Shown here: positions 1 through 16,570 of the stretch, piece after piece | How the letters are laid out: each line of letters begins with the position of its first letter | Position numbering within the stretch: the stretch's first letter is position 1 | Source of the DNA: an uncultured archaeon | GTDB taxonomy: Archaea > Thermoplasmatota > Penumbrarchaeia > CAZUZU01 | Direction of reading: 5' to 3' | DNA: 17,460 nucleotides | Assembly (NCBI GenBank): GCA_964624865.1 | Contig: CAZUZU010000051.1 | Location: 1 to 17,460, forward strand | Made by a program: the position numbers and the translations under genes | The notes under the pieces: generated by a model | Told to the model about the DNA's origin: nothing | Seen by the model: the letters and a program-made list of their open reading frames with translations, nothing else | The model's database searches: none

Positions 1-45
1 CCACTTCCCGTCCCCGCCACCGCCACCGCTGCGGGGTCAAAAGAG

Positions 46-426
46 TTACACGCCTTGCTCGCGAGCCTCCCGGAGGTCCCTCAGGCAAAGTTCAAGGATT
101 GCCTCGTACTCCTCCCTTGGAAAGGCAAGGTTCCGGGGCAGGGAGTAGAACACGCCGATCCTGGAGATCTCGTGCCTGTCGTAGGCTGCCCTGGCGGTGG
201 TAACCTTGGCGGAGTAGACAACGTTCTCGTCGATACGGTGGTCTTCCAACAAAGCCACGTTGTAGCCGGTCTCCTCCCCGGTTTCCCTCAAGGCCGCGGC
301 CTCGGGTTTTTCACCGTCTTCCACCCCGCCCCCCGGGAACTCCCAGCCCTCCCTCTTTCTGCTCCGGACCATGACGAATCCCGCCCTCCCTTCATGAATT
401 ACAAACGGTACCACGTAGACGAACAT
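46..426 (-). CDS. NUDIX hydrolase (126 aa)
   Basis: ORF track 46..426(-). The translated protein carries a recognisable NUDIX box, G-x5-E-x7-R-E-x2-E-E-x-G, in '...GGVEDGEKPEAAALRETGEETGY'. The start codon is the reverse complement of cat at 424-426. Confidence 0.75.
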   Translation of the reverse strand: MFVYVVPFVIHEGRAGFVMVRSRKREGWEFPGGGVEDGEKPEAAALRETGEETGYNVALLEDHRIDENVVYSAKVTTARAAYDRHEISRIGVFYSLPRNLAFPREEYEAILELCLRDLREAREQGV

Positions 427-475
427 GGGGGATGTTATGGCCGGGTGGCTAATAAAATGTTCATAGTCGGTGCCA

Positions 476-490
476 AAATTAATATATACT
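476..490 (+). promoter_or_regulatory. TATA-like box (aattaatatatac) in the divergent promoter region between the NUDIX and ATPase genes
   Basis: AT-rich 'aaaattaatatatac' lies about 30-40 nt upstream of the ATG at 520. Just downstream is a 5-1-5 palindrome, ggtat-t-atacc. The 93-nt intergenic spacer is shared with the minus-strand NUDIX gene. Confidence 0.4.
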
Positions 491-519
491 TGTTGGGTAT
501 TATACCTACTAGGTATACT

Positions 520-1899
520 ATGCGCTTCTATAACCGGGAACGGGAGATCGCATTGCTCCGTAACCTTAAGAAATACCGGGTGGCAATAATGGGTCGCAGG
601 CGTGTTGGCAAGACTCGACTGGTGGAGGAGTTCTTTTCCTCCGATCTGCTGACCCTCTTTGTATCCGCTGAAAAATCCGAAAAAGAATTGATATCGACAT
701 GGTGCAATACTTATCCCGGGGAGGACTTGCCACAGGTCGCCACCTTAAGGGAATTCTTCAGGTTCCTTTTCGAGTACAAACAGGATAAGATAATATTCAT
801 TGATGAAGCCCAGAACATAATAAAGGTAAATAAATCGTTTCTTTCCGACCTTCAGCGCTTCATTGATTCTAATCCCGACGTAAATATCATTATCACAGGC
901 TCTCTCATAAGCACGATGAAGGATGTCGTAACAGCTATGAAGAGCCCCTTGTTCGGAAGATTCGATCTGACAATAAAACTTGAGGAATTGGATTTTAAGA
1001 CCGTGGCGGAAATATGTCAGGATTTAGGATTGGATTTCGAAACAACCATACAATTGTATTCGATTTTCGGCGGCATACCAAAATATTATGAACTTCTGGA
1101 ACGCCTGAAGGTGTTTGATTTAAGCGATTTCATACGGGATATGTTCGTATATTCCCCCAGACCCCTCTACGGAGAGGTGAGAACAATGCTCAGAGAGGAG
1201 TTTGGCAACGAACATCGTACACTTTTTTCGATCCTTTCTGCTGTGGCACAGGGCAGGAACCGAATGAGTGAAATCGCCGGTTTCCTGGGCCGCAAAACAA
1301 CGGATATTACGAAATATATCCAAATGTTGAGGGAGGACTTCGAGATTCTAAGGCGTGTAACACCCGCCCTGTACGGCAAACGGGGGATATACGAGATAAA
1401 TACGAATATCGTTGATTTTTGGTTTGCCAACATATGGAAGTATCAACAATACCTGGAGGTGGGAAACGAGGAAAAGCTGTCGGATATAATAGAAAAGAAC
1501 ATCAATAAGTATATTGGTAGGAAATACGAAGAGATAATCATTGAACTATGCAGATCAGTTAATTTTGGTTTCGATTTAAAAATGATTGGTAGGCAATGGG
1601 GTACGATGAAGGGGAAGCCAAAGGGCGAGAATCAGTACGAGATCGACCTTGTTATGTCTGGCCAATCCAATATGATATTCGGGGAGTGTAAATGGTCGAA
1701 TCGCGTGGATGCAAGGAAAATAGCCAAGATGTTGGATGAAAAAGTCCAATACATCGACACTCATGGGAATAATATCCAGTATGCGATTTTTGTCAAGGAT
1801 TTCAGTAGAAGGATCACTACTTACAAGGGAAACAAGGTAGATTGTTTTGACCTTGAGGATATCAAGAATCTAATATTTGATTATAGTAAAAAACCTTAA
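520..1899 (+). CDS. AAA+ ATPase of the archaeal ATPase family (Arch_ATPase-like) with a C-terminal DUF234-like PD-(D/E)xK domain; 459 aa from the internal ATG
   Basis: ORF 55..1899(+) in the track. Its first 155 codons are antisense to the NUDIX gene and are probably not translated. The in-frame ATG at 520 is residue M156, at 55+465, and gives 'MRFYNREREIALL...'. Walker A is 'GRRRVGKT' and Walker B is 'IIFIDEAQ'. The C-terminal 'YEIDLVMSG...GECKW' resembles a PD-(D/E)xK motif. An AT-rich TATA-like box lies about 30-40 nt upstream. Confidence 0.8.
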   Translation: MRFYNREREIALLRNLKKYRVAIMGRRRVGKTRLVEEFFSSDLLTLFVSAEKSEKELISTWCNTYPGEDLPQVATLREFFRFLFEYKQDKIIFIDEAQNIIKVNKSFLSDLQRFIDSNPDVNIIITGSLISTMKDVVTAMKSPLFGRFDLTIKLEELDFKTVAEICQDLGLDFETTIQLYSIFGGIPKYYELLERLKVFDLSDFIRDMFVYSPRPLYGEVRTMLREEFGNEHRTLFSILSAVAQGRNRMSEIAGFLGRKTTDITKYIQMLREDFEILRRVTPALYGKRGIYEINTNIVDFWFANIWKYQQYLEVGNEEKLSDIIEKNINKYIGRKYEEIIIELCRSVNFGFDLKMIGRQWGTMKGKPKGENQYEIDLVMSGQSNMIFGECKWSNRVDARKIAKMLDEKVQYIDTHGNNIQYAIFVKDFSRRITTYKGNKVDCFDLEDIKNLIFDYSKKP

Positions 1900-1911
1900 G
1901 GTTCCAGCTTA

Positions 1912-1960
1912 TTGATAATCGGTTTTTCACATATAGTGCGGAACCGTTAAAGATTATCAA
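1912..1960 (+). terminator. Inverted repeat / stem-loop (ttgataatcgg ... ccg-ttaaa-gattatcaa) followed by a T-rich tract, immediately after the ATPase stop
   Basis: A 9-bp perfect inverted repeat, ttgataatc at 1912-1920 and gattatcaa at 1952-1960, plus flanking gg/cc pairing. It sits 13 nt after the stop at 1897-1899 and is followed by 'ttttcc'. It could equally be a TF operator for the downstream operon. Confidence 0.3.
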
Positions 1961-2030
1961 TTTTCCACTATATATATATCGAATTAGAATGAAAAAGTTA
2001 TTTCCATAATCGCATTATACATATAAGAAC

Positions 2031-2045
2031 CTTTAAATATTTCAT
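2031..2045 (+). promoter_or_regulatory. TATA-like box (tttaaatatt) upstream of the three-gene operon
   Basis: An AT-rich box about 30-40 nt upstream of the first candidate start codons at 2074-2086. Other AT-rich candidates are 'ccactatatatatatcg' near 1966-1982 and 'cattatacatataag' near 2013-2027. Confidence 0.3.
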
Positions 2046-2079
2046 AGGTCTTTTACGCACATTAGGGAAAAAGGTGTTG

Positions 2080-2427
2080 ATGATAATGGAAGAGGACGAG
2101 TTAAGGTTCTACGGGATATGGGGAACCTTTCTGATGATACTGGGGGTCACTTTCGGTCTATGGGACGTGACAGGTAACGGGATAGTTGCCTTTTGTTTCT
2201 TCTTTATTGTATACGGGACGATCCTGGCCTTAATGGCGATGATGAGGCCCAGGGCGCCGATGATGTACGGCCTGGGCGCCGGGCTGGCGGTGTTCGGGTT
2301 CGTTGCCTTCTTCCTCCTTGGCCAATACATATCCGTGATGCTCACCGTTGCTGTGATATTCACCTTCGTGGGCCTGGGGGTAATAGGCTTCGGGCTGAAG
2401 ATAGGACAGCGGGAGGGAAAACAATGA
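2080..2427 (+). CDS. Small integral membrane protein, about 4 predicted TM helices (about 115 aa)
   Basis: ORF track 2074..2427(+) starts at a GTG. The first ATG is at 2080, and the ATG at 2086 is also possible, with 'aggtg' upstream. The protein is strongly hydrophobic with four 18-23 residue apolar stretches, for example 'IWGTFLMILGVTFGLW' and 'ISVMLTVAVIFTFVGLGVIGFGL'. Its stop TGA overlaps the next ATG as ATGA at 2424-2427. Confidence 0.6.
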   Translation: MIMEEDELRFYGIWGTFLMILGVTFGLWDVTGNGIVAFCFFFIVYGTILALMAMMRPRAPMMYGLGAGLAVFGFVAFFLLGQYISVMLTVAVIFTFVGLGVIGFGLKIGQREGKQ

Positions 2428-2960
2428 CCGACCTTAGGGAAAAGGTAAAGGAAGATCGAGGACTGTTAAAAAAAATAGAGATGGCGATACCCGGCTTTCG
2501 CGGCTATAGAAAGCGGGAGGACCTGAGGATCGCTGACAGTTTACTGAGAAAACAGCTTGCCGACCGCCTGAAGAACATCGGAAAGAAGGTGGAGCGTCTG
2601 AGGGAGGAGGCGGCAAGGAAGGCGGACATGGACCTGCTCAATATAGCGGGCCCCTTGATCAACAAGGCCGATGCCCTGGAGGCCAAGGTGAGGCACGCGC
2701 CGCAGGGCTACACGGGAATATCGCCGGATTACCGCCTGGAGGAGGAAGAGCTCAACGCCCTCTACGGCTTCGACTGGGACCTTATTACCGGGGTGAAACA
2801 CCTGGAGGAAATGGCGGAGAAGGCGGTGAAGGCCGCCGCTGCCGGGGACCCCCCCGAAATAAGATCGGCGGTATCGGACATCAGGCAGGGAATGGAGTCA
2901 TTTTCGGAATTGTTCGACAAGAGGATAGAGAAGATAGCCGGAATGGAGGCGTTCGAATGA
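2424..2960 (+). CDS. Soluble alpha-helical / coiled-coil protein (178 aa), function unknown; a PspA/ESCRT-III-like role is speculative
   Basis: The ATG at 2424 is in frame with ORF 2193..2960, as M78 at 2193+231. It is preceded by 'gggaggg' at 2411-2417 as an SD. The protein is rich in K/R/E heptad-like helices, for example 'LRKQLADRLKNIGKKVERLREEAARKAD'. Its stop overlaps the downstream start as ATGA at 2957-2960. The upstream part of ORF 2193.. overlaps the membrane-protein gene and is rejected. Confidence 0.6.
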   Translation: MTDLREKVKEDRGLLKKIEMAIPGFRGYRKREDLRIADSLLRKQLADRLKNIGKKVERLREEAARKADMDLLNIAGPLINKADALEAKVRHAPQGYTGISPDYRLEEEELNALYGFDWDLITGVKHLEEMAEKAVKAAAAGDPPEIRSAVSDIRQGMESFSELFDKRIEKIAGMEAFE

Positions 2961-4120
2961 AGATATTCGGCAAGAGCGGCAAGGCGACCGACCAGGACCT
3001 GGGAGATGCCAGGAAGACATTTGACTGGCCCGACGGGCAAAAGGCGGACAACCTGCTCTGGCGGCTTCCCAGGAACGTGCAGTGGAACGACAATGTCGTT
3101 GTAAAGGAGGACGAGTTCGCCGTGTTCTTCAGGGACGGCAAGGCACTCCATGTGTTCGATAGGCCGGGCAGGTTCGTTCTGACCACGGAGAACGTTCCCG
3201 TGCTCGGGACCCTGGGTGCCAAGCTCACCGGGGTCAGGCAGCTGGGCGAGATATACTACCTGCAAAGACGGGAATTGAGGGGCAAGTTCGGCACCAAGGA
3301 GCCCCTGTCCTTTCGGGACCCTGATTTCGGCGTTGTGAGAATAAGGGTCTTCGGTCAGTTCGCTTACAAGGTGGACGATCCCATGATGTTGATAACCCAG
3401 TTCATAGGCTCCAAGGGCTACGGCGGCTCGGACGAGGTGATCTCCTGGGTCAAGGACCAGATAGTCATGATACTGAACGATGTGATGGGCGAGCTGAAGA
3501 GGGACCAGAACATGGGCGTGCTTGACATGCCTGCCTATCTGCAGGAGCTGGAGCAGATGTGTCTCTCCCGTTTAACCTCGGAAACCGAGAGGTACGGTCT
3601 CGTGGTAACCAAGTTCTCCGGGCTAAACATCAACCTGCCGGACGAGGTGCAGGCCGCGATAGACAAGAGAGGCGCCATGTCGGCCCTTGGCGTGGATTAC
3701 ATGCAGTACCAGACCGGCAAGGCGGTGGAAGGAATTGGGGAGGGCGCGGCCAAGGGCGGGGACGCATCGGGATTTGCGGGAATGGGCGCGGGAATGGGCG
3801 CGGGTTACGCCATGGGTCAGAGCATGAACCAGGGCATGCAGCCAACCCAGAGCAGCAAGCAGCCAATAGGTTCCAAGGCCAAATGCCCCAAATGCGGGCA
3901 GCCCTACGATCACTCGGACAAGTTCTGCCCAAACTGCGGCGCTCTCCTTGACAAGGGCGGGGAAGACAAGATAAAATGTCCCAACTGCGGCCATCTCGTT
4001 GAGAAGGGGGTCAAGTTCTGCCCCAACTGCGGCGCTTCCATGACCCTAAAGTGTCCTGAATGTGACGCCGAACTTCAACCCGGCACCAAGTTCTGCCCCA
4101 ACTGCGGAAACAAGTTCTAA
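2957..4120 (+). CDS. SPFH/band-7-like protein of the COG4260 type ('putative virion core protein' family) with a Gly/Met-rich linker and three C-terminal zinc ribbons (387 aa)
   Basis: ORF track. The N-terminal about 230 aa resemble COG4260 SPFH-like proteins such as B. subtilis YdjI, though that comparison is from memory. A low-complexity linker 'GFAGMGAGMGAGYAMGQSMNQGMQ' follows. The C-terminal zinc ribbons read 'KCPKCG-x9-KFCPNCG', 'KCPNCG-x9-KFCPNCG' and 'KCPECD-x9-KFCPNCG', giving 12 Cys in all. Confidence 0.75.
   Translation: MKIFGKSGKATDQDLGDARKTFDWPDGQKADNLLWRLPRNVQWNDNVVVKEDEFAVFFRDGKALHVFDRPGRFVLTTENVPVLGTLGAKLTGVRQLGEIYYLQRRELRGKFGTKEPLSFRDPDFGVVRIRVFGQFAYKVDDPMMLITQFIGSKGYGGSDEVISWVKDQIVMILNDVMGELKRDQNMGVLDMPAYLQELEQMCLSRLTSETERYGLVVTKFSGLNINLPDEVQAAIDKRGAMSALGVDYMQYQTGKAVEGIGEGAAKGGDASGFAGMGAGMGAGYAMGQSMNQGMQPTQSSKQPIGSKAKCPKCGQPYDHSDKFCPNCGALLDKGGEDKIKCPNCGHLVEKGVKFCPNCGASMTLKCPECDAELQPGTKFCPNCGNKF
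3778..3801 (+). repeat. Tandem 12-nt repeat (gggaatgggcgc x2) encoding GMGAGMGA in the linker
   Basis: A direct tandem duplication seen in the sequence at 3778-3789 and 3790-3801. Confidence 0.8.
3920..4107 (+). repeat. Three copies of a 20-mer (aagttctgcccCaactgcgg) at about 3920-3939, 4013-4032 and 4088-4107, encoding the KFCPNCG half of each zinc ribbon
   Basis: Copies 2 and 3 are identical, and copy 1 differs by one nucleotide. The spacings of 93 and 75 nt equal the ribbon-module periodicity. This suggests module duplication or concerted evolution. Confidence 0.8.
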
Positions 4121-4152
4121 AGACATCGTGCCTGCCAGGGAAAAGACGACAT

Positions 4153-4174
4153 CGACAAGTGTCGTAATCGACAT
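4153..4174 (+). promoter_or_regulatory. Palindrome cgaca-ag-tgtcg with flanking direct repeats of 'atcgaca', just upstream of the regulator gene's TATA box
   Basis: A 5-2-5 inverted repeat lies at about 4153-4164. 'atcgaca' occurs at about 4151-4157 and 4167-4173. The position is about 15-35 nt upstream of the TATA box at 4178-4191, consistent with an autoregulatory operator, though this is an inference. Confidence 0.3.
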
Positions 4175-4177
4175 TCG

Positions 4178-4191
4178 TTAATTTTATATAC
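4178..4191 (+). promoter_or_regulatory. TATA box (ttaattttatatac) for the regulator/mevalonate operon, probably a leaderless transcript
   Basis: The AT-rich box ends 22 nt before the ATG at 4213. No SD sequence lies in between. This geometry is typical of archaeal leaderless mRNAs. Confidence 0.45.
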
Positions 4192-4212
4192 TTCCTTGAC
4201 CTTCCCGAAATC

Positions 4213-4911
4213 ATGCCGGAAAAGGATGACCTCAATCTCGCCGAAAAGATCGCGGGAGAGATCGTATTTTCCCCTTCCCCGGGAAAGACAATAAGGAAAT
4301 GGAGGGACATCTTCGACGTGAAACAGAGCGAGCTGGCCAAGCATCTGGGCACCAGCGCGTCGGTGATCAGCGATTACGAGGGTGGGAGGAGGAAGAGCCC
4401 GGGAATAGCCACTATCAGGAAAATGGTCGCCGCTCTTCTTGAGATCGACGAGGGCAAAGGTGGGCGCATCATCCGCAAGTACAAGGTCCTGGGCAAGAGC
4501 GAGGCCATTATAGACATCAAGGAATTCTCACGATCGGTGAGCTTGATGGAGTTCGTTGACAAGCTGGACGGCGAGATGATAAACAAAAAGCACATATCCC
4601 TCTCCCACAGGGACATCCACGGCTACACCTTCATGGACAGCGTGAAGGCCATATTGGAGTTCGGCAGCCACGATTACATGAGAGTTTACGGCTGGAGCAC
4701 CGAAAGGGCCTTGTTATTTACAGGCGTTTATTACGGGCGCAGCCCGATGATAGCGGTGCGGGTTCACCCCCTCAAGCCCGCGGCCGTTATCTATCACAAG
4801 CCTGAGAGGGTGGACGACCTTGCCGTTAAGCTGGCCGATATAGAGGCGATACCATTGATCGTGACCCAATTGAAAGAGGAGAAGATAATCGACTACCTGT
4901 CCGAGATATAG
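4213..4911 (+). CDS. XRE-family helix-turn-helix transcriptional regulator with a C-terminal domain of unknown function (232 aa)
   Basis: ORF track. An HTH_XRE-like segment is 'VKQSELAKHLGTSASVISDYEGGRRKSP'. The C-terminal about 150 aa are of unknown function and resemble archaeal COG1395-type regulators only loosely. The gene sits 12 nt upstream of the HMG-CoA synthase gene on the same strand. Confidence 0.65.
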   Translation: MPEKDDLNLAEKIAGEIVFSPSPGKTIRKWRDIFDVKQSELAKHLGTSASVISDYEGGRRKSPGIATIRKMVAALLEIDEGKGGRIIRKYKVLGKSEAIIDIKEFSRSVSLMEFVDKLDGEMINKKHISLSHRDIHGYTFMDSVKAILEFGSHDYMRVYGWSTERALLFTGVYYGRSPMIAVRVHPLKPAAVIYHKPERVDDLAVKLADIEAIPLIVTQLKEEKIIDYLSEI

Positions 4912-4923
4912 GAGGAATGTAAA

Positions 4924-5991
4924 ATGAGCGTAGGAATAGTAGGGTACGGGGCTTACGTCCCGAGATACAGGATAAAGACCGAAGAGATAGCCCGGGTATG
5001 GGGAATAGACGGGGTTGCCTTGGCAAAAAGGCTCAATCTATATTCGAAGAGTGTGCCGGCCCCGGACGAGGACGTCGCCACCATAGCTACCACGGCGGCC
5101 CGCTACTCGGTGAAGAGAGCGAAGATAGATCCCCAAAAGATCGGGGCCCTTTACGTGGGGTCGGAAAGTCATCCATATGCGGTAAAACCCACGGCAACCA
5201 TAGTTGCGGAGGCCATCAACGCCACGCCCGAGCTGACTGCGGCGGATTTCGAGTTCGCCTGCAAGGCGGGAACGGCCGCAATGCAGTCATGCATGGGGCT
5301 GGTGAATTCCGGGCATACCGACTACGCAATGGCAATTGGGGCCGACACAAGTCAAGGGGCTCCCGGAGATCCGCTGGAGTACAGCGCCTCGGCCGGAGGG
5401 GCGGCGATGTTGATAGGAAAGGAGAAGATACTGGCGGAGATAAATGAGACCGTATCTTACACCACCGACACCCCGGATTTCTGGAGAAGGGAAGGACAAA
5501 AGTATCCCCGGCACGCAGAGCGGTTCACCGGTGCACCTGCTTACTTCAAGCACATAACTTCCAGTGCTAAGATGCTGATGGAGAAGATTGATACCAAGCC
5601 GGAGGATTACGACTTCGTAATCTTACACCAACCCAACGGCAAGTTCCCCTTGGCCGTGGCAAAGATGCTGGGCGTCAGGAAGGAGAAGGTTTTACCAGGC
5701 CTGCTTACCCCGAGGATAGGCAATACCTACAGCGGTGCTTCACTCTTGGGGCTGGCAGCGGTTCTCGACGGCGCGGAGCCCGGGGACAGGATCATGATGA
5801 TATCATACGGTTCCGGGGCCGGCAGTGACGCCTTTGACATAACCGTAACCGAAAGGATCGTCAAGGCAAGGGCGGTTCTGGGCGTTCCCCATGTCGAGGA
5901 CATGATCGCCAAGGAAGAATATATTGACTATGCAACCTACGCAAAGTTCAGGGAGAAGATAGTGTTCCAGGAGGATACCTATTTGGGATGA
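4924..5991 (+). CDS. Hydroxymethylglutaryl-CoA synthase, archaeal type (355 aa)
   Basis: '[17 protein letters not shown]...' is a typical archaeal HMGCS N-terminus. A conserved Glu is in 'GSESHPY', the catalytic Cys in '[12 protein letters not shown]', and 'SYGSGAG' is also present. GGAGG lies 9 nt upstream of the ATG. Confidence 0.9.
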
Positions 5992-6002
5992 GGTGATCAA
6001 AA

Positions 6003-7169
6003 ATGAGAGATGTAGCAATAATTGGTGTGGGCATATCAAAGTTCGGCGAGCAGTGGGAAAAGTCACTAAGGGAAATAGGAATAGAGGCGGGCGTCATGGC
6101 GATAAACGACGCCGGTATCACTGGCAACGACGTTGAGGCATTATACATAGGCATATCCTCGTCAGCGAATTTCGCGTCGCAGGAGCATATAGCTCCCCTT
6201 ATTGCCGACCAGGTGGGGCTGGCGAAATGGAACGTTCCGAGCACGAGGATAGAGGCGGCTGACGCATCGGGCGGGGTTGCGTTACGACAGGGCTTCTTAT
6301 CCGTGGCCTCGGGCATGAACGATGTCGTGGTGGTGGGAGGGGCGGAGAAGATGTCAGACCTTACCTCCACCGAGATGACGGATGTCATGGCCTCCACCGC
6401 AGACCAGGAATGGGAGGCGTTCTTCGGCGCAACCCTTCCCTCGCTGTATGCTATGATGGCAAGACGTCACATGCACGACTACGGAACCACGAGGGAACAG
6501 ATCGCCCACGTTGCGGTAAAGAACCATAGGAACGGCGCACTGAACCCCATGGCACAGTACCGGAAGGAGGTTAACTTGGACATGGTAATGGGATCCGATA
6601 TGGTGGCCGATCCCCTAACTATGTTCGACTGCGCACCGATAAGCGACGGCGCCGCGGCCGTGGTGTTGGCCTCCGTGGACAAGGCCAAGAAGTTCACCGA
6701 CCATTTCATAAAGATTTCCGGCTCGGGCCAGGGGTCTGACAGGCTTTCCCTGCAGGAAAGGAAATCCATCACAACTATGGAATCCACCCGGAAGGCCGCC
6801 AGAGACGCCTTCGAGATGGCCGGAAAGAAGCCCGATAATATTGATGTTGCCGAGGTCCACGATTCATATACTATCGGTGAGATCATGGCCATCGAGGATA
6901 TAGGGTTCTTTGAGAAGGGAAAGGGGGGTATGGCGATTGAGCACGAGCTTACAGGATTGCACGGTAAGATCCCGGTGAACCCGTCCGGCGGCCTGAAGGC
7001 AAGGGGCCATCCCCTGGGCGCCACCGGAATAGCACAGGTGGTCGAGCTCACCCTTCAGTTGAGAGGTGCGGCGGATAGGAGACAGGTCAAGGGTGCCGAG
7101 GTAGGCCTGGCCCAGAACATAGGCGGGACCGGGGCCACTGCGGTTGTTCACATATTGGAGGTGATATGA
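6003..7169 (+). CDS. Acetyl-CoA C-acetyltransferase (SCP2-type thiolase) homolog, with Asp at the expected nucleophile position (388 aa)
   Basis: Thiolase-fold motifs are present: '...AADASGGVALRQGFLSVASGMNDVVVVGGAEKMS', 'MFDCAPISDGAAAVVL' as the HDCF-like loop, and 'RGHPLGATG'. The C-terminal CxG cysteine is Asn, which is typical of SCP2-type thiolases. The position normally occupied by the nucleophilic Cys, in C-A-S-G, is Asp87, codon gac at 6261-6263. The whole protein has a single Cys. GAGGTGA lies upstream of the ATG. Confidence 0.85.
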   Translation: MRDVAIIGVGISKFGEQWEKSLREIGIEAGVMAINDAGITGNDVEALYIGISSSANFASQEHIAPLIADQVGLAKWNVPSTRIEAADASGGVALRQGFLSVASGMNDVVVVGGAEKMSDLTSTEMTDVMASTADQEWEAFFGATLPSLYAMMARRHMHDYGTTREQIAHVAVKNHRNGALNPMAQYRKEVNLDMVMGSDMVADPLTMFDCAPISDGAAAVVLASVDKAKKFTDHFIKISGSGQGSDRLSLQERKSITTMESTRKAARDAFEMAGKKPDNIDVAEVHDSYTIGEIMAIEDIGFFEKGKGGMAIEHELTGLHGKIPVNPSGGLKARGHPLGATGIAQVVELTLQLRGAADRRQVKGAEVGLAQNIGGTGATAVVHILEVI

Positions 7170-7218
7170 ATGAGAATATTAATTACACAATTCAAAGAAC
7201 GAGAGGGGAGGTGTTAAC

Positions 7219-7620
7219 ATGCCGGTAGCTAGATATTGGCGCGAGCAGAAACACAGGTATAACCTATTGGGATGCAAATGCGGTATCTGCAAGGAGGTGT
7301 TCTTCCCTCCGAGATTGATATGCCCCGAGTGTCACAGACAGTCCATAGGGAAGATCGAGCCCCTCACACTCGCACCCTCCGGAACGATAGAGACGTTCAG
7401 CATAGTCTACGATGCGCCGCACTTCCAGAAGATGCAGACCCCCTACGTCATGGCAATAGTCCGTTTGGACCACGGACCCAAGATAACAAGCCAGGTGGTT
7501 GACGCGTCACCGGACGACGTGGAGATAGGCAAGAGGGTCAACGTGGTCTTCAGACGGATACAGGAGAGTGGAAAGAGCGGCACCATCCACTACGGCTACA
7601 AGTTCATTCTGGCGGATTGA
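7219..7620 (+). CDS. DUF35 OB-fold / zinc-ribbon protein, partner of the archaeal thiolase-HMGCS complex (133 aa)
   Basis: A rubredoxin-like C-x2-C...C-x2-C motif reads 'CKCGICKEVFFPPRLICPECH', followed by an OB-fold-sized C-terminus. GGAGGTG lies upstream. The conserved gene neighbourhood with HMGCS and thiolase supports the call. Confidence 0.85.
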   Translation: MPVARYWREQKHRYNLLGCKCGICKEVFFPPRLICPECHRQSIGKIEPLTLAPSGTIETFSIVYDAPHFQKMQTPYVMAIVRLDHGPKITSQVVDASPDDVEIGKRVNVVFRRIQESGKSGTIHYGYKFILAD

Positions 7621-7651
7621 TATCCACAGCCGATCTCAGTCAACAGCCCCC

Positions 7652-8680
7652 TTAATCCAGAGAATTCACCGTATCTTCGAACTGGGCCATAAAGGGTTCC
7701 ATGATGTCGGGATGGGCCAGGGTTATTCTAATATGGTCCTTGTCCAGGCCTCTTATATGATATCCCCTTTCCTCCATTTTAGATACAAGGTCCCCGGCTT
7801 TATCCTTGATCTCGATGTAAAGGAAATTGGCGTTGGAAGGATAGACCTTTAAGGGCAGGGAACTCAACCTGGAGCAGGTCTCTTTCCTGACCTTTGAGCA
7901 CATCTCTTTGACCCGGGCGACGTAATCCTTGTCCCGGATCGCCGAGGCGGCGGTTACCTGGGCCACAGCATCAAGGTTGTAAGGCGATCTTGTTTTATTC
8001 AACACATCGATAATATCCGGCGGGGCCAAGGCGTAACCCGCTCTGATACCCGCAAGGCCGTAGGCCTTTGAGAACGTCCGGAGACATATTACATTGTCAT
8101 GGTCCGTGACGGGCGATTCTCCTGAAAATTCTGCGTATGCCTGGTCCAATAATACTATCCCCCCCGTTCCTTCCGCCAACTGTAATATATCGTCCTTTGA
8201 AAAGGAGTTGCCAGTGGGGTTGTTCGGGCTGGCCAGAATGATGATCTTGGGGTCGATGGCGAGCAGTCCTTCTACCTGGGGGGACATGTCTTGATCAAGG
8301 GGAACCTTCATCAATCTCGCTCCCGCTATTACAGAATAGAAGTCGTACATGACGAACGAGGGGACCGGAAATGCGATCCTGTCCCCGGGTTCTATGAAGG
8401 ATTTTATGATGAGGTCGATGATCTCGTCGGAGCCGTTGGACACCAATACATTGTCGGCATCGGCGGACCATTGTTCCGCGATTGCCTTTTTTAATTCACC
8501 GGCCTCGGGGTCGGGATAATGGTTCAGTTCCAACCCTTCGAGTAGTTCGGGTATGTTTTTGGTCACGGGATTGGGCATGAACTGGTTGGTATTCGCATCA
8601 AGCCGTATTCCTTTCTTTTGTTTTGCTTTGTAGGGACTTAAGTTTTTAATGGCTGTCCGCACCCACTTGTCCACGTCCAT
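7652..8680 (-). CDS. hisC: Histidinol-phosphate aminotransferase (342 aa)
   Basis: A class I/II aminotransferase fold with the PLP-lysine motif 'TFSKAYGLAGIRAGYA', together with 'ASPNNPTG' and 'DQAYAEF'. These are typical of HisC. Confidence 0.85.
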   Translation of the reverse strand: MDVDKWVRTAIKNLSPYKAKQKKGIRLDANTNQFMPNPVTKNIPELLEGLELNHYPDPEAGELKKAIAEQWSADADNVLVSNGSDEIIDLIIKSFIEPGDRIAFPVPSFVMYDFYSVIAGARLMKVPLDQDMSPQVEGLLAIDPKIIILASPNNPTGNSFSKDDILQLAEGTGGIVLLDQAYAEFSGESPVTDHDNVICLRTFSKAYGLAGIRAGYALAPPDIIDVLNKTRSPYNLDAVAQVTAASAIRDKDYVARVKEMCSKVRKETCSRLSSLPLKVYPSNANFLYIEIKDKAGDLVSKMEERGYHIRGLDKDHIRITLAHPDIMEPFMAQFEDTVNSLD

Positions 8681-8703
8681 GGGCGAGAGAAATCAACAAA
8701 GGG

Positions 8704-9180
8704 TTAAAATTCTTTTCCTTCGTCTTGAAGTTCCCGGGCAAAGAGACGAGCCTTGTGTTCCTTCGAGAATATGTTTAGTAATTGCTCGACGTCACCGTCC
8801 ACTATGAAAAGATGGCTTTTTGCCAGGGTGTCGCTGGAACCGAAATTCGGAACGGGATCGAAACGGGATGAAAGAATGGCGGCAAGTTCGGCCTCGATCT
8901 CCGGTTCGCAGTCCAGAATAAATATTTTCCTTACCTTCGCCGTGTCATTTGAGGTCAAATAATCAATATGCCACCTATTCCTTTTATTGGACGAGAGGTG
9001 CCTCTCAAGCCTTTTTCCCAGGCCCCTTTTCGCCCTTCCCGCGTAGGCGTATGAACCGGCTTTGAAATTGATGTTTCCAAGTGCACCCACTGTGATGTCG
9101 ATCTCTTTATCAAGATCGACCAAAAGTACGTAAAGTCCTTTGTCGTTGTAGCTAAGGGGCATATCCATGTACCCGTGCAT
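8704..9180 (-). CDS. GIY-YIG nuclease superfamily protein of the DUF123 family (about 150-158 aa)
   Basis: 'KAGSYAYAGRAKRGLGKRLERHLSSNKRNRWHIDYL' matches the G-x-Y-x-Y-x-G ... R ... H core of DUF123/GIY-YIG. The start is uncertain, with in-frame ATGs at M1, M5 and M7. The gene sits 23 nt upstream of hisC on the same strand. Confidence 0.7.
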   Translation of the reverse strand: MHGYMDMPLSYNDKGLYVLLVDLDKEIDITVGALGNINFKAGSYAYAGRAKRGLGKRLERHLSSNKRNRWHIDYLTSNDTAKVRKIFILDCEPEIEAELAAILSSRFDPVPNFGSSDTLAKSHLFIVDGDVEQLLNIFSKEHKARLFARELQDEGKEF

Positions 9181-9271
9181 ACATATAATGTTCTTATGTG
9201 TTTCTAAATCAAAACAGAAACGGGCGCGGGACCCTCGCGGAAGCTTTATATAATTTCATTTGTTCGAAGAA

Positions 9272-9943
9272 ATGGGAGGTTTCAAAATGGAATGGACTGA
9301 GAAGTTCGAGAAATGGTTCAAGGAAGGAAAGGAAGAGGAAGAAAGATATCTGGATTGGCCCTGGGACACCGAGGTGGAAAAGGGGGACAAGGAGGACGTG
9401 TTGACGTCGACCCATCCCAAGGTGCCCTTTGGCATTCGGATTTACGTGACAAAGCACTGGGCGAATCTGTATATCGATCCCGGAATTCCTACGGACACTA
9501 TGAGCGTAGAGGAAAGAATGAGGACATACAGAAAACTTCTCCGAATAAACACCGACCTAAACCTGATGAAGACCGGTCTCGCAGGGGACGAGAACCGGGT
9601 GGTCCTTGCCGTGGACCTGGACCTGGCCTCGCTCAATAACGAGGAGTTCAGCGACGCCCTGGGTTCTTTGATAATAGGCAGCCAGAAAGTGGTGGACAGC
9701 CTTGGACTTGAAGAGGAGCTTTCCCAGCTGATGTTCCAGAGGACCGCTGCAATGGCCTACGAGAAGATAACGGCGGGAGAGAGCGAGGAGGAGGTTACCG
9801 ACTTCCTGATACAAAGGGTGGGCCTTGACGAGGATTATGCCAAGGAGTTCATGGATAACGTATTAAAAGCGGTGGAAGAGGAGAAATCCAAGGCCAAGAT
9901 AGAGGCGGACGCCGACGAGGTAGACCTTGGATACATCAGATGA
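9272..9943 (+). CDS. Hypothetical acidic cytoplasmic protein (about 219-224 aa)
   Basis: The ORF track starts at a TTG at 9260. The first ATGs are 9272, my choice because the TATA 'tttatata' at about 9245-9252 places the TSS near 9272-9277, and 9287, preceded by 'gggagg'. No recognisable family. The protein is Glu/Asp-rich. Confidence 0.5.
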   Translation: MGGFKMEWTEKFEKWFKEGKEEEERYLDWPWDTEVEKGDKEDVLTSTHPKVPFGIRIYVTKHWANLYIDPGIPTDTMSVEERMRTYRKLLRINTDLNLMKTGLAGDENRVVLAVDLDLASLNNEEFSDALGSLIIGSQKVVDSLGLEEELSQLMFQRTAAMAYEKITAGESEEEVTDFLIQRVGLDEDYAKEFMDNVLKAVEEEKSKAKIEADADEVDLGYIR

Positions 9944-10042
9944 TAGGTATAAATTGTATGGACATTTAGACCCTCAATCCTTTAACAGCCCGTTATGTAT
10001 GGATTAGATAACAGAAGAAAACCAATAAAATCTACAGTTTGT

Positions 10043-11869
10043 TCAGTCAACTGTCAATGTCTTGGATAGATTTCTCGGCAGGTCCGGGTTGTTGCCCACC
10101 GAAACCGCCCAGTGGTAGGCAATCAATTGCAGGGGGACCACGCCGAGGATCGGGGCTATATCACCGTGTGCCGGCGGCAGGGGGATGAACTCGTCGGAAT
10201 TCTTACGAAATGCCATGGAATCAGGTGCTATGGCAATAATACTGCCCTTTCGACAGGTTATCTCGTTCATATGGGATATGACCATCCTTGCGTCCTCCGG
10301 CACCGCTACGAAGATAACGGGATAGCCCTTCTGAATTATGGATAATGGGCCGTGTTTGAACTCGCTGGAATACATGCCCTCGCAGTGGGCGTAGGTCACC
10401 TCTTTGATCTTTAATGCGCCCTCCAATGCGGTGCCGTGGCAAAGCCCGTATCCCAGGCAGTAAATATCTTTGATCTTGGATTTTGACAGGTCTCCGGCTA
10501 TCTTCCTGCAGGTTTCGTCAGATTCGGAGATGGCCCGCTCCAGCTTTGAGGGAAGCTCGTGAAGTTCGTCCCACAACCTGTTCAGCGTATGGGGCTCCAC
10601 GAAGTTCTTTTTCTCAGCGATCTTCAAGGAAAGATAGAAGAACAGAACGACCTGGTTCATGTAGGTCTTGGTGGCGGGCACGCTAATCTCCAGGTCGCAG
10701 GATAGAGGCAGATAGACCTGAGAATTTAGCATTAATGTTGAGCCCAGCACGTTCAATACGCCGAGTATCCTGCCCTTCCCCATCTTCTTGCAGTGGTTAA
10801 CCACGTTGATCACGTCCTTGGTCTCGCCGCTCTGGCTAACGCAAAGGATCGGGGTATCCTTGTCAATTACTGCGCCGTAGAGGTCGATGAACTGCCCGGC
10901 GATCACGGGAATGGCGTTCACGCGTGCGTTACGGTTCAGGTAATAAGCGCCCATGACGCAGGCGTTGAAACTGGACCCCGAGGCCACGAGATAAACGTTC
11001 TCGTCCTCCATGGCATCTATGAAGCTGTCCAGGAACTTGGATTCGTCCAAGACGTTGATCAGGGCCTTTAGCCTCGAAGGTTGCTCGTGTATTTCCTTGA
11101 GCATGTAATGGTCGAATCCGCCTTTGGACGCGTCCTTTGCGGTGAGGTCGCATATCTCCGCCTCTCTTTTCAGTTCCCCGCCGCTCTCGATGCCGTATAT
11201 GGAGTATTCCTTGGAATCGAACCTAACCATCTCTCCGTCCATCAAGGTCACGATCTTATCCGTAAAGGGAAGTATCGAGGGAAGGTCGCTGGAGCAGCAT
11301 ATGAATTCCTTACCTATGCCCAGGTATAGAGAGGAGCCGGATTTGACAGCGTACATGTGGTCTTCGTCTTTGGTGGTCACGGCATAGGCGTAGTCCCCGT
11401 GAAGCTCGTCATGTGCTTCCTGGATAGCTTGGAGCATGGAATCGCTCCCGTTATATTTCTCCTCCACAGCGTGTACCACCATCTCCCCGTCGTTCCAGCC
11501 TTTTACCTTGTGGCCGTCCCGGATGAACCTGTCCCTTAGTTGGGTGGTGTTTACTATATTGCCATTGTGCGCCCCCACCATGTTCTCCCGGCAGTCAATG
11601 TGGGGTTGAGCGTTCTTCTTGCTCGGCCGGCCGAAGGTTGCCCAGCGGAGCTGGATTATACCTTTGCTGCCCTTCATCGATTGAAAATCGTATTTCTTGG
11701 CCACCTCCTCTATGGTGCCCACGTCCTTTCTCAGGTCTATGTCCCCGTCAATCGTTGCGCAGCCAACCGAATCGTATCCCCGGTACACCAGCCTCCTGCC
11801 CGCCTTGATAAGTATCTTGCCCAGTTCGGGGTTCACGCCATCCCAAACTATACCGAATATTCCGCACAT
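10043..11869 (-). CDS. glmS: Glutamine--fructose-6-phosphate aminotransferase, isomerizing (608 aa)
   Basis: The N-terminal 'MCGIFGIV' is a class II Gln amidotransferase with Cys2. Two SIS domains are present, with 'CVSQSGETKD'. The C-terminal '...KTLTVD' is typical of GlmS. An oligo-T tract lies on the minus strand downstream at 9944-10042. Confidence 0.92.
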   Translation of the reverse strand: MCGIFGIVWDGVNPELGKILIKAGRRLVYRGYDSVGCATIDGDIDLRKDVGTIEEVAKKYDFQSMKGSKGIIQLRWATFGRPSKKNAQPHIDCRENMVGAHNGNIVNTTQLRDRFIRDGHKVKGWNDGEMVVHAVEEKYNGSDSMLQAIQEAHDELHGDYAYAVTTKDEDHMYAVKSGSSLYLGIGKEFICCSSDLPSILPFTDKIVTLMDGEMVRFDSKEYSIYGIESGGELKREAEICDLTAKDASKGGFDHYMLKEIHEQPSRLKALINVLDESKFLDSFIDAMEDENVYLVASGSSFNACVMGAYYLNRNARVNAIPVIAGQFIDLYGAVIDKDTPILCVSQSGETKDVINVVNHCKKMGKGRILGVLNVLGSTLMLNSQVYLPLSCDLEISVPATKTYMNQVVLFFYLSLKIAEKKNFVEPHTLNRLWDELHELPSKLERAISESDETCRKIAGDLSKSKIKDIYCLGYGLCHGTALEGALKIKEVTYAHCEGMYSSEFKHGPLSIIQKGYPVIFVAVPEDARMVISHMNEITCRKGSIIAIAPDSMAFRKNSDEFIPLPPAHGDIAPILGVVPLQLIAYHWAVSVGNNPDLPRNLSKTLTVD

Positions 11870-11950
11870 GCCCCTCCATAAAGGGAAGGGAGTTTATATA
11901 TTTAATGCCAGTATCTCGAGAAATGGTATATGGGCGATATAATATCCGTT

Positions 11951-13285
11951 TTACTTCCTTTTCCTCTTAAGATTATGGAATACCACGGCCCCTGATACAA
12001 GGGCGGTTGCCAGGAACAACAGGGGTTGGTGCCGGATCATCTCCGTGGCGGCATCAAGGATAGGCTGCAGGGCGGGATTCATCCCGATGGTGGGGTCGTG
12101 ATGCAGGCGGCCGGTACCGTTGAGCCGGTAATCCATGACCATGGTCCTTTTACTGGCGTCTCCCGTTTCCGCCAGATAGCCTTCTACGGCTATGGTTTCA
12201 GTACCAAGGGATTCGATGTCTCCCTTGTAGAAGTTGGCCTCTTTCAAGTATGCGTAGTAGCCCAGTTTTTCCCCGTCTCGGTTGTAATAATAGATCCTTC
12301 CCTCTTCCTCCCCGTCAATAAGCTCGCCTATGGTGTTCCCTCCGGTTTCGTCCACTATGTCCTGGAAAAGGGCGATCCTGTAGCTCTCTGGCACGTTACC
12401 GTCTACATAAATGTCTATATCGAACTTCTGCCTGTCCCAATCCTCGGAACTGCGCATGGCGCTGGAATAATGGAAGCCTAAGTTGAGGTCTATGCCTCCG
12501 TTGGAAGCGTACCCTCCGTTTGTCCCGGTTACGGAGAAGTCGTATCTCTCGTATCCTTCCAGCAGGTTCAATCTCATGGACCAATCCAGGTCGTCGAGGC
12601 TGTATTCGGCGAACTCTTCCCCGTCCTCGTATCTCTGGTTGTTGTTGTGGTCCTGATAGAGGACTGCGTTGGTATATTCGATACGGAACCTGGCTCCCTC
12701 ACCCATGTCCGAGGTATAGTAGTAATATATCTCCGGCTCGTCCGTTTTGACCACGGCTGTGAATACCTTCCCCTCTATTATCACCGAGTTCTCTTTCATG
12801 TAGAGCTGGAATTCCTCGCCTTTTCCCTCGGAGGGATAAGGACTGAAATCCTCCATGGTATATTCCTTGGTCAGGTAATCCAGGGTCCCCAGTAACTCTC
12901 CCTCGAATAAAACATATATCTCTATTTTGAACCTACCTTCCAGGCCCTTCTGGTATATCTCGCTCCCGTCGAACCTCAGGGTTACATTGTATGTGCCCGG
13001 TGAGAAGGAACCGGAATTGGATGCCATTATGCCGCCGGAATTGGTGATCTTTGCGTAAAGGGCGTAATCCCCGGCTTCCGTAGGATTGAAACTGAGCTCC
13101 AGATTGAGGGCGTCGAATATCCCGTCCCCCTCGAAATCCTCTTTTTCCTCACCGGTCACGGACAGTATGCCCTCTACCTGCCCGCTGGTGTTTTGAGGGA
13201 TTAGGATAATGGTTAGAACAAGGGCTATTGTGACAACGAACACAGCCGAAAGCGCCGCCCTACTATTCGAACCTCGCGTTTTCAT
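11951..13285 (-). CDS. Predicted secreted/cell-surface protein with an N-terminal signal or anchor and a C-terminal TM segment plus basic tail (444 aa)
   Basis: The N-terminus is 'MKTRGSNSRAALSAVFVVTIALVLTIILIP'. The C-terminus '...HQPLLFLATALVSGAVVFHNLKRKRK' is a hydrophobic helix followed by KRKRK, resembling archaeal C-terminal anchors but without a PGF motif. The protein is rich in Tyr/Gly/Asp/Glu. An AT-rich palindromic TATA region lies upstream. Confidence 0.6.
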   Translation of the reverse strand: MKTRGSNSRAALSAVFVVTIALVLTIILIPQNTSGQVEGILSVTGEEKEDFEGDGIFDALNLELSFNPTEAGDYALYAKITNSGGIMASNSGSFSPGTYNVTLRFDGSEIYQKGLEGRFKIEIYVLFEGELLGTLDYLTKEYTMEDFSPYPSEGKGEEFQLYMKENSVIIEGKVFTAVVKTDEPEIYYYYTSDMGEGARFRIEYTNAVLYQDHNNNQRYEDGEEFAEYSLDDLDWSMRLNLLEGYERYDFSVTGTNGGYASNGGIDLNLGFHYSSAMRSSEDWDRQKFDIDIYVDGNVPESYRIALFQDIVDETGGNTIGELIDGEEEGRIYYYNRDGEKLGYYAYLKEANFYKGDIESLGTETIAVEGYLAETGDASKRTMVMDYRLNGTGRLHHDPTIGMNPALQPILDAATEMIRHQPLLFLATALVSGAVVFHNLKRKRK

Positions 13286-13311
13286 CTCGTCTCCCTAATA
13301 TGTAGATTGTC

Positions 13312-13328
13312 TTATATCATATATAAGG
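13312..13328 (-). promoter_or_regulatory. Palindromic TATA-like element (cttatat-cat-atataag) upstream of the surface-protein gene
   Basis: A 7-3-7 perfect inverted repeat made only of AT-rich sequence, 27-43 nt upstream of the start codon at 13285 on the minus strand. Confidence 0.35.
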
Positions 13329-13436
13329 GTTTTAGGACAATCATCGAACTATTGACACGGATATTCTTGTCCTGGCTTGTATCCTGGCTTTTGCTTACCC
13401 AAAAGGTGATAACCATACGTCCCATCATTAGCCTCT

Positions 13437-14183
13437 CTACTTGCGTCTGAACAGCTTGCCCTTGGCCAAGTAATACAGTCCTTTCTTCCTAATGTAGCCC
13501 AGGACCTGACGGTATCTTTTGCCTAGGTCCTTCCTCGGCACTTCTTTGGGGTCGTAATAGATGTCCTTGTCTGCGACCTCTTCAACGTATCTTCTCGCCC
13601 TCTCCTCCAGCCAGGTCTGCAACGGCTCGCCTATCTCCTCGATATCAACTATGTATCCCTCGCTTCTGAGGGATCTCTTGGCCTTTTCCAGAATAGCTCC
13701 GGTGCATATCTTTATCTTCGTTTTTTTCTTGTCGGGATCAATGTCGTGGATTATCTCCATGGTCCTTTCCCTGAAACGGTCCATGTACTTCTTGCGCTTG
13801 TACCTCTTGCCCTGAAAGTAACGGACCTCGATCTCCCTCCAATGATATTCATCCCTTCCTTTGTCATATACGCCGCACAGGGCCCCGCCTATGGGGAAGG
13901 ACCAGGCCGCGTCGTCAATGAAGATCAATCTCTTCCCCTCGTCGGCCACCAACCCTCCGTGGTTAACAAGTCTCTCCAGGGTATAGTCGTCATTGTGGAT
14001 CATGAGAAGTTTGTCCTTCTTGTTTTTATATACCCTGATATTGAACTTTTCGGTGACCTTGGCCCCGTCTCCCTTTAATTTCAAAACAAGGCGGGGATTG
14101 TTCTCGTCATCCTCAATTAGATCGAGTGCCTTTAACTTATCCAAATATTCCTCATCGATTATCTTCTTGGGCATAACAAACAC
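13437..14183 (-). CDS. Hypothetical, highly basic (Lys/Arg-rich) protein, possibly nucleic-acid-binding (248 aa)
   Basis: ORF track. About 25% K+R. I could not assign a family. It starts 22 nt downstream of the CPBP protease gene on the same strand, so the two are probably co-transcribed. Confidence 0.55.
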   Translation of the reverse strand: MFVMPKKIIDEEYLDKLKALDLIEDDENNPRLVLKLKGDGAKVTEKFNIRVYKNKKDKLLMIHNDDYTLERLVNHGGLVADEGKRLIFIDDAAWSFPIGGALCGVYDKGRDEYHWREIEVRYFQGKRYKRKKYMDRFRERTMEIIHDIDPDKKKTKIKICTGAILEKAKRSLRSEGYIVDIEEIGEPLQTWLEERARRYVEEVADKDIYYDPKEVPRKDLGKRYRQVLGYIRKKGLYYLAKGKLFRRK

Positions 14184-14205
14184 TCGGGTTTAAAAGTTGC
14201 TCAGC

Positions 14206-15837: not shown

Positions 15838-15992
15838 AACATGTCTAATTATATTTTCTATTTGTTTTTGGCAGTATTCCCCCCGTCCCGGGATATTATC
15901 CTGATATGTTCAAAGTATTCTTAGTTATCCTCTATTTTCGTAGTGTTGAATAAATAGGTCTCATATTCAAAATATATATCCTTTCCCGTCCC

Positions 15993-16448: not shown

Positions 16449-16570
16449 TAAACATCTCTTGATAAATAAGGGTTTTCTAAAAGCCGGGCTTGTCTCTGGC
16501 CACTACACCTCCCGTCAACCAACATTTATTTATAGGCAAATGATTATCATACTATATAGGGAGAAGGGCT

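Follow-up and report, generated by a model that had tools for sequence, protein, structure and literature searches.

Three consecutive genes on the + strand of a 17,460-nucleotide stretch of DNA from an uncultured archaeon (GTDB lineage Archaea; Thermoplasmatota; Penumbrarchaeia; CAZUZU01; NCBI GenBank assembly GCA_964624865.1, contig CAZUZU010000051.1, positions 1 to 17,460 of the forward strand), here called the window, probably make up a single operon that encodes a membrane-associated SPFH scaffold complex. Gene 1 (2086-2427, or 2074-2427 with an alternative start) would provide a membrane anchor, gene 2 (2424-2960) an adaptor and gene 3 (2957-4120) the scaffold. The original prediction, made from the sequence alone, had read this locus as an archaeal counterpart of the Psp membrane-stress system of Bacillus; the results described below indicate that it is an SPFH module of the YdjI type and not a Psp module.

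Gene organization and pairing in related genomes

The predicted arrangement of three same-strand genes with ATGA stop/start overlaps at both junctions was found in the sequence. At the gene 1/gene 2 junction (2424-2427) the ATG at 2424-2426 overlaps the TGA at 2425-2427, and at the gene 2/gene 3 junction (2957-2960) the ATG at 2957-2959 overlaps the TGA at 2958-2960. Since each has a conserved family of homologues, all three were taken to be real genes; homologue searches gave 335 matches for gene 2 and 624 for gene 3.

The neighbourhood of gene 2 was determined in a scan with one genome per species, which yielded 161 relatives of this gene. The best 80 loci were used; all are archaeal, belonging to Thermoplasmatota (including Methanomassiliicoccales and DHVE2), Methanomicrobiales and Methanoperedens/ANME-2. 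A Band_7_1 gene, the counterpart of gene 3, lay directly 3' of gene 2 in 70 of the 70 archaeal loci with enough downstream sequence. The two genes were separated by a gap of -1 at 30 loci, of -4 at 11 and of 0 to +7 at 15, indicating that short stop/start overlaps are the norm for this pair. Nine distant gene 2 homologues (approximately 20-40% identity) were looked up singly, and the bacterial distribution rests on these; eight of the nine share an operon with a Band_7_1 gene. The 70/70 adjacency together with these distant co-operons indicates that the pairing of gene 2 with gene 3 is ancient and close to obligate.

Two of these eight are operons of five genes in Armatimonadota-type bacteria (L085:5001-9310 and L090:5001-9241), in which the gene 2 homologue is followed by genes for DUF4178, NfeD, Band_7 (stomatin-type) and Band_7_1-DZR proteins. 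At two loci with bacterial-looking neighbours, such as Flp-pilus genes, the Band_7_1 protein encoded after the gene 2 homologue (L086:5596-6669 and L087:4068-5126) ends in an excisionase-type HTH_17 domain and not in zinc ribbons. This swap gives a hint that the C-terminal part either binds nucleic acid or serves as an exchangeable adaptor.

The gene 1 family was found directly upstream of the pair in 53 of 75 loci, namely in 29/32 loci of Methanomicrobiales, 16/22 of Thermoplasmatota and 0/7 of Methanoperedens/ANME. These counts bear out the synteny expected of the genes in related genomes and reveal gene 1 as a frequent yet replaceable third member. At least one small membrane partner, belonging to the gene 1 family or combining a zinc ribbon with a membrane segment, adjoined the pair in 43 of the 49 loci with wide flanks; four of the remaining six had another membrane protein nearby, encoded by a gene with six transmembrane (TM) segments or by NfeD plus Band_7 (stomatin-type) genes. 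The membrane partner of the pair appears to be exchangeable. One Thermoplasmata subgroup (L073, L075, L082 and L084) carries a 10-12-TM protein of about 450-500 amino acids (aa) in place of the small 4-TM gene, and two unclassified euryarchaeal genomes (L049 and L055) carry a 377-aa 6-TM protein at the gene 1 position.

Gene 3 encodes a soluble SPFH protein with three zinc ribbons

The Pfam matches and the AlphaFold2 model of gene 3 (2957-4120, + strand) identified its 387-aa product as a soluble SPFH protein of the Band_7_1/COG4260 (YdjI/SamI) type. The SPFH domain (aa 40-242; 3074-3682, + strand), located by Pfam and the model, matched Band_7_1 (PF13421) with E=5.2e-40 and 137.8 bits against a gathering cutoff of 24, over model positions 10-210 of 211. 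Band_7_1 is the family assigned to Bacillus subtilis YdjI (Popp et al. 2022; Ravi et al. 2024). The AlphaFold2 model, built with 35 homologues, showed a confident core with the SPFH alpha/beta fold, which superposes on PH1511, QmcA and HflK/C, followed by short helices at residues 229-243 and 248-265 and then by disorder and the ribbons. The Gly/Met/Ala-rich low-complexity linker (aa 262-306; 3740-3874, + strand) is predicted to be disordered from its sequence and from a predicted local distance difference test (pLDDT) score below 50 at residues 267-305. The C-terminal region (aa 308-387; 3878-4117, + strand) consists of three tandem C4 zinc ribbons (CPxCG ... FCPNCG, x3), as judged from Pfam and the Cys positions: six CxxC pairs run from Cys 310 to Cys 383, and Zn_ribbon_3, Zn_Ribbon_1 and DZR matched over aa 305-387.

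The PF13421 match, the model and the Cys positions thus confirm that gene 3 is a COG4260 SPFH protein in which a Gly/Met linker leads to zinc ribbons at the C-terminus, as first proposed; the number of ribbons, three, is a detail that corrects the earlier description. The fusion of ribbons to the SPFH protein had also been taken as a departure from Bacillus. This did not hold, since YdjI has been described with the same layout of linker and ribbon and fused ribbons are the norm of the Band_7_1 family. Other Band_7_1 proteins have SHOCT domains at the C-terminus instead (PMC3581485).

No membrane segment was detected in the gene 3 product, whose top 19-residue Kyte-Doolittle score was 0.86. A sequence search of the Protein Data Bank (PDB) with gene 3 returned a zinc-finger match alone and no related solved structure outside the ribbons, indicating that no Band_7_1 structure has been solved.

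Gene 2 encodes a four-helix-bundle protein of a large family

The AlphaFold2 model, the homologue family and the synteny of gene 2 (2424-2960, + strand) indicated that its 178-aa product is a soluble four-helix-bundle protein. The model, obtained from 44 sequences with a pLDDT of 85.9 and a predicted template modelling score (pTM) of 0.82, has an N-terminal helix at residues 4-21 and two hairpins, 31-65/69-90 and 107-140/143-173. The protein had been expected to be a coiled-coil protein; it is all-helical, yet the model shows a compact four-helix bundle plus the N-terminal helix and not an extended coiled coil. The top 19-residue Kyte-Doolittle score of 0.62 indicates that gene 2 has no TM-grade segment.

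Gene 2 had no Pfam match, and distant members of its family were likewise without any Pfam family. The sole curated model that matched was NCBIfam NF047596 ('LIMLP_15305 family protein', Leptospira), with aa 6-167 aligned on model positions 9-169 of 175 (E=1.7e-17). The score of 63.8 bits falls far short of the equivalog cutoff (210), which makes gene 2 a distant relative of NF047596, from the same homologous superfamily, and not a member. In the literature the LIMLP_15305 locus is named only as a gene flanking a small RNA (PMC7567364). An exhaustive profile search placed 1433 clusters (50% identity) in the gene 2 family at E<=1e-3 and 812 at E<=1e-10, nearly all of which are 165-185 aa long and stand alone. 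The literature searched contained no description of either the gene 2 family or the operon of genes 1-3.

The most conserved part of gene 2 is the motif IPGFRGYRKREDLRIADSLLR at aa 22-42 (2487-2549, + strand; alignments A1, A2 and A3). A second conserved element, seen in the alignments and the model, is the loop (R)HA(E/P)QGY.GIS.D between helices 3 and 4 (aa 89-102; 2688-2729, + strand). Residues P23, G24, Y28, R35, D38, G95, D117 and R163 (the last numbered by the reference sequence of A2/A3 and corresponding to R167 in the window protein) are invariant across archaeal and bacterial members. They are located in the IPGFxGY loop, where helix 2 begins, in the HAxxGY loop and in neighbouring turns of helices 4 and 5. 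According to the helix topology of the model, the conserved residues would all lie at one pole of the bundle, suggesting a single conserved binding surface.

Among the best 150 family representatives, the only fusions found were to an N-terminal zinc ribbon and to a C-terminal DUF4178 domain; in representative protein P0225 the gene 2 domain is fused to DUF4178, which has also been reported from PspA-CesT polyamine operons. Thirteen of 44 gene 2 homologues matched LemA (PF04011) below threshold, at 14-18 bits against a cutoff of 26.2, and in all the matches examined aa 73-108 (window 2640-2747; helix 3 and the RHAEQGY loop) aligned with LemA positions 81-116. This resemblance could reflect a distant relationship or a convergent motif; gene 2 was not assigned to LemA, its matches being sub-threshold and its sequence having no TM segment.

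Gene 1 encodes a small membrane protein

The open reading frame (ORF), the hydropathy and the homologue family of gene 1 (2086-2427, + strand) revealed a small 4-TM membrane protein of 113 aa, hydrophobic over nearly its whole length, as had been predicted for the first gene. Its length depends on the start codon, being 113 aa from ATG 2086 (MEEDELRFY...), 115 aa from ATG 2080 and 117 aa from GTG 2074. The most likely start is ATG 2086 rather than GTG 2074, because homologues begin near the E-D-K-R-F-Y motif and because the spacing of an AGGTG sequence fits; this sequence, which is Shine-Dalgarno-like, lies at 2072-2076 (+ strand), 9 nt 5' of ATG 2086. An N-terminal E-D-x-R-F-Y motif is conserved in the family (alignment A4). 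The predicted topology is N-in/C-in with this motif in the cytoplasm, since the acidic/aromatic N-terminus is conserved and loop 2 and the C-terminus are positively charged.

The gene 1 family was detected by jackhmmer in 61 of 84 related loci. Its homologues are 15-23% identical in alignment A4, and the family is recognisable only by iterated search. Gene 1 had no consistent Pfam match and belongs to no known family. DUF350/YjfL, NfeD and LiaF-TM were rejected as assignments, their scattered weak matches being biased by membrane-segment composition; NfeD_membrane, for example, matched weakly in just 2 of 30 members. TPM_phosphatase matched neither gene 1 nor gene 2 and was not among the 25 Pfam families commonest among their homologues.

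Accessory zinc-ribbon proteins in related loci

All-against-all clustering of the ORFs in related loci revealed a further recurrent family, present as one to three paralogues in about 52 loci (for example L015:2243-4650, L020:4155-6588, L005:6706-7641 and L093:6707-7642). The accessory proteins combine an N-terminal zinc ribbon with a domain of about 200 aa, to which one or two C-terminal membrane segments are usually added. They occur in forms of approximately 250 aa and 345 aa and as a shorter paralogue of approximately 200 aa without a membrane segment; membrane segments were found in 37/40, 47/53 and 0/41 members, respectively. The three forms are mutually homologous (hhalign probabilities 98-100%). 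The only non-ribbon family in the 25 Pfam families commonest for them was PepSY ('Peptidase propeptide and YPEB domain'), with weak matches in 5 of 31 members and a best E of 0.014.

B. subtilis YdjG has two zinc ribbons, a YpeB-related domain and a membrane segment (Ravi et al.). The accessory proteins share this architecture; the match is at the level of architecture, and the PepSY similarity is weak. The parallel to ydjGHI is stronger because relatives of the module carry proteins of YdjG architecture. In Methanomicrobiales three accessory genes precede genes 1, 2 and 3 in a tight six-gene cluster, in Methanoperedens three lie 3' of gene 3, and several Thermoplasmatota loci have one 3' of gene 3. 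No accessory YdjG-like gene is present in the window; the same three-gene form occurs in Methanomassiliicoccales CP070739.1, Thermoplasmata CP070751.1 and a small number of further loci.

Proposed complex

Known SPFH proteins are membrane-attached oligomeric scaffolds. In the proposed complex the gene 3 product would be the scaffold, probably oligomerising like other SPFH proteins, with its three zinc ribbons held out on the flexible Gly/Met linker. Since it has no membrane segment, it would need co-encoded partners to reach the membrane. Gene 1 is the likely four-pass membrane anchor, with its N-terminal motif facing the cytoplasm, and gene 2, which would bind the SPFH protein, is likely its dedicated adaptor or a regulator of its assembly. 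The identity to homologues falls from gene 3 (54-63%) to gene 2 (47-59%) and gene 1 (15-23%), and this gradient, together with the interchangeable membrane partners, fits roles as scaffold, adaptor and loosely constrained anchor, respectively. YdjI is described as soluble and as requiring YdjG and YdjH for membrane localisation (PMC8581546; bioRxiv 10.64898/2026.02.06.704340). Complex formation, the binding partners and oligomerisation are thus predictions, and a role in membrane organisation or envelope-stress sensing is proposed by analogy.

Several points weigh against this scheme. The helical extension that follows the SPFH domain of gene 3 (aa 229-265) is far shorter than the cage-forming coiled coils of the HflK/C or flotillin type, which makes the formation of a cage uncertain. 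No gene 2-gene 3 fusion occurred among the best 150 gene 2 family representatives, and one distant gene 2 homologue (L091) is solitary, with no SPFH neighbour. Neither the Methanoperedens/ANME loci nor the bacterial operons contain a member of the gene 1 family, indicating that gene 1 is not essential to the gene 2/3 pair. The putative gene 2/3 complex is predicted from gene context, and the suggested physiological role is based entirely on the parallel with B. subtilis YdjGHI/SamGHI.

A wider interpretation, which we put forward tentatively as a possibility, is that the gene 2 family is an ancient dedicated partner of soluble Band_7_1 SPFH proteins, common to archaea and bacteria. With interchangeable anchors (the 4-TM family, proteins of YdjG architecture, or NfeD plus a stomatin-type SPFH protein), the pair would form a widespread PspA-independent scaffold/stress-sensing system, of which the Bacillus pspA-ydjGHI operon would be a derived offshoot.

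Alternative explanations

In the original prediction gene 2 was a very divergent membrane remodeller of the PspA/Vipp1/ESCRT-III kind, tethered by the SPFH protein, and the locus therefore an archaeal Psp module. Profile, hhalign, PDB and Foldseek comparisons were all negative on this point. PspA_IM30 and Snf7 were absent from the gene 2 matches and from the 25 Pfam families commonest for the 44 members (E<=10), and a PDB profile search with gene 2 gave designed bundles and similar proteins, with no PspA among them. Alignment by hhalign of a 64-sequence gene 2 family profile with E. coli PspA and Synechocystis Vipp1 gave a probability of 0.4%. Foldseek with the gene 2 model found nothing at E<=0.001; it matched only generic bundles, with no PspA or Vipp1 in the top 60. 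The model itself, a compact two-hairpin bundle (pTM 0.82), does not have the long alpha1-alpha2 hairpin with alpha3 to alpha5 of the ESCRT-III fold, and its N-terminal helix is highly charged, with a mean hydrophobicity of -0.38 compared to +0.34 for the amphipathic helix alpha-0 of PspA. Furthermore, jackhmmer detected no PspA/Vipp1 homologue in any ORF from the window or 90 related loci (approximately 800 kb in total), a search that covers about 5 kb around the module, and the proposal of a Psp module is therefore not supported. The PspA/ESCRT-III reading of gene 2 is thus largely refuted, and we consider it very unlikely.

Gene 2 could, on the other hand, be a regulator or chaperone of SPFH assembly (a cap, an anti-oligomerisation factor or a partner of the ribbon tail) and not a membrane bridge, in which case gene 1, or the YdjG-like proteins in relatives, would bind the SPFH protein directly for membrane attachment. 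The gene 2/3 pairing is kept without gene 1 where paralogues with ribbons and membrane segments, or NfeD plus Band_7 (stomatin-type) genes, occur, and the gene 2 homologues with an N-terminal zinc ribbon of their own hint at interplay with ribbon-bearing partners. We regard this explanation as rather doubtful, although it and the adaptor model are both compatible with every result and fit them equally well. The module might also be mainly a signalling or sequestration device, in which the ribbons bind nucleic acid or a transcription factor and the state of the membrane controls expression. The HTH_17 domain that replaces the ribbons at the same C-terminal position in the bacterial homologues at L086 and L087 keeps a signalling role open, the next gene after the module in the window is of the HTH_3 type, and loss of SamI/YdjI in B. 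subtilis is reported to lead to global transcriptional changes (bioRxiv 10.64898/2026.02.06.704340). However, ribbons of the gene 3 type also mediate protein-protein contacts, the SHOCT domains that end other Band_7_1 proteins (PMC3581485) argue against such a role, and the HTH_3 neighbour is not among the recurrent gene families of related loci; this explanation is improbable. A role in anti-virus defence or abortive infection, or membership of a mobile island, was considered because the upstream neighbour (55-1899) matches the PADLOC candidate PDC-S27 (E=3e-35) and the GC content falls to 0.40-0.44 in the region from roughly 500 to 2500. No PADLOC match at E<=0.1 was obtained for any of the three proteins, PHROGs matches were confined to the zinc ribbons, the neighbours in other genomes are varied housekeeping genes, and the GC content of the module (0.53-0.59) is at the local level, making this explanation extremely unlikely. 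The adaptor model, with gene 1 as anchor and gene 3 as scaffold, is retained as the probable one.

Expression signals and neighbouring genes

Upstream of gene 1, in the AT-rich spacer after the preceding gene, a TATA-box-like TTTAAATA box at 2032-2039 (+ strand) is a candidate archaeal promoter. GGAGG sequences were found 7 nt 5' of the ATG of gene 2 (2412-2416, + strand), within the 3' end of gene 1, and 7 nt 5' of that of gene 3 (2945-2949, + strand), within the 3' end of gene 2. Since GGAGG is common in this purine-rich stretch, the GGAGG, AGGTG and TTTAAATA motifs are suggestive only. In the intergenic region that closes the operon (4121-4212, + strand) there is a weak inverted repeat of 6 bp (ACGACA...TGTCGT), together with a T-rich TTAATTTTATATA tract, which may also be the TATA box of the next gene.

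That gene (4213-4911, + strand) encodes an HTH_3 (XRE-type) helix-turn-helix protein with an uncharacterised C-terminal domain of about 150 aa and lies between the SPFH operon and the mevalonate genes. These encode an HMG-CoA synthase, a thiolase and a DUF35-type protein (zinc ribbon plus OB fold) in a row (4924-7620, + strand), a trio which we take to be the archaeal set for the first steps of the mevalonate pathway. The upstream neighbour (55-1899, + strand) encodes an ATPase_2/AAA_14 plus DUF234 protein and has a GC content of 0.40-0.44, compared to about 0.55 elsewhere. Its listed TTG start at 55 overlaps an opposite-strand gene and is probably too far upstream; the latter gene encodes a small NUDIX hydrolase (46-426, - strand; Pfam E=1.3e-15) at the left edge of the window. 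On the - strand there are also genes for a 444-aa protein (11951-13285) with an N-terminal signal/anchor and a C-terminal membrane segment apparent from reading the sequence, and for a 543-aa multi-pass protein (14206-15837) whose CAAX protease domain is Rce1-like and which ends in a long extracytoplasmic region at the C-terminus. The rest of the window, in which this CAAX-protease-like protein and the mevalonate trio stand beside genes for an aminotransferase and GlmS, is ordinary archaeal housekeeping.

Significance and comparison with known systems

SPFH proteins of the YdjI type are the least understood branch of SPFH proteins, being soluble, standing outside the classical raft-like domains and having been studied in just one organism. 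The results indicate that in archaea they have a near-obligate four-helix-bundle partner from a large family without a Pfam model, a pairing also present in some bacteria, and that the membrane components around the gene 2/3 pair have been swapped between lineages. Neither the gene 1 nor the gene 2 family is covered by a Pfam model or mentioned in the literature searched. The locus thus provides concrete candidates for the recruitment or control of a soluble SPFH scaffold and two or three new protein families for annotation. It also separates the SPFH module from the Psp/ESCRT-III system that had been linked to it, leaving the idea of a divergent archaeal PspA at this locus unsupported.

The closest parallel is the pspA-ydjGHI (samGHI) operon of B. 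subtilis, where a soluble SPFH gene is likewise co-encoded with small membrane proteins; the operon logic is similar and the YdjI-type SPFH subunit is common to both. However, the window operon has no PspA in or near it, no TPM-domain YdjH and no YdjG-like gene, and contains instead a 4-TM protein and a four-helix-bundle protein, neither of which has been described before. Gene 3 also has three zinc ribbons, compared to the one zinc-finger motif described for YdjI. With the PspA/Vipp1/ESCRT-III superfamily, gene 2 shares an all-helical structure, a similar size and a position upstream of a YdjI-type gene, whereas it has no sequence, profile or specific fold similarity to these proteins.

The SPFH-NfeD operons (stomatin PH1511/PH1510, QmcA-YbbJ and FloA-NfeD) resemble the module in having two or three genes that encode an SPFH scaffold and a dedicated small partner, and in Armatimonadota-type bacteria the gene 2 family is found in an operon with NfeD, Band_7 and Band_7_1. 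In contrast to those systems, gene 3 has no membrane anchor and a short post-SPFH helical extension, and neither gene 1 nor gene 2 is an NfeD, no Pfam match to NfeD being found for either. SPFH proteins have also been reported, along with coiled-coil and zinc-ribbon proteins, from the 'Meth_adaptin' ESCRT loci in Methanobacteriales (Makarova et al. 2024; PMC10936438). Archaeal SPFH proteins with zinc ribbons are thus common to those loci and the module described here; Vps4, ESCRT-III and adaptin-like genes accompany them in the Meth_adaptin loci, whereas near the present module none of these is found and the SPFH gene stands with its 4-TM and four-helix-bundle partners.

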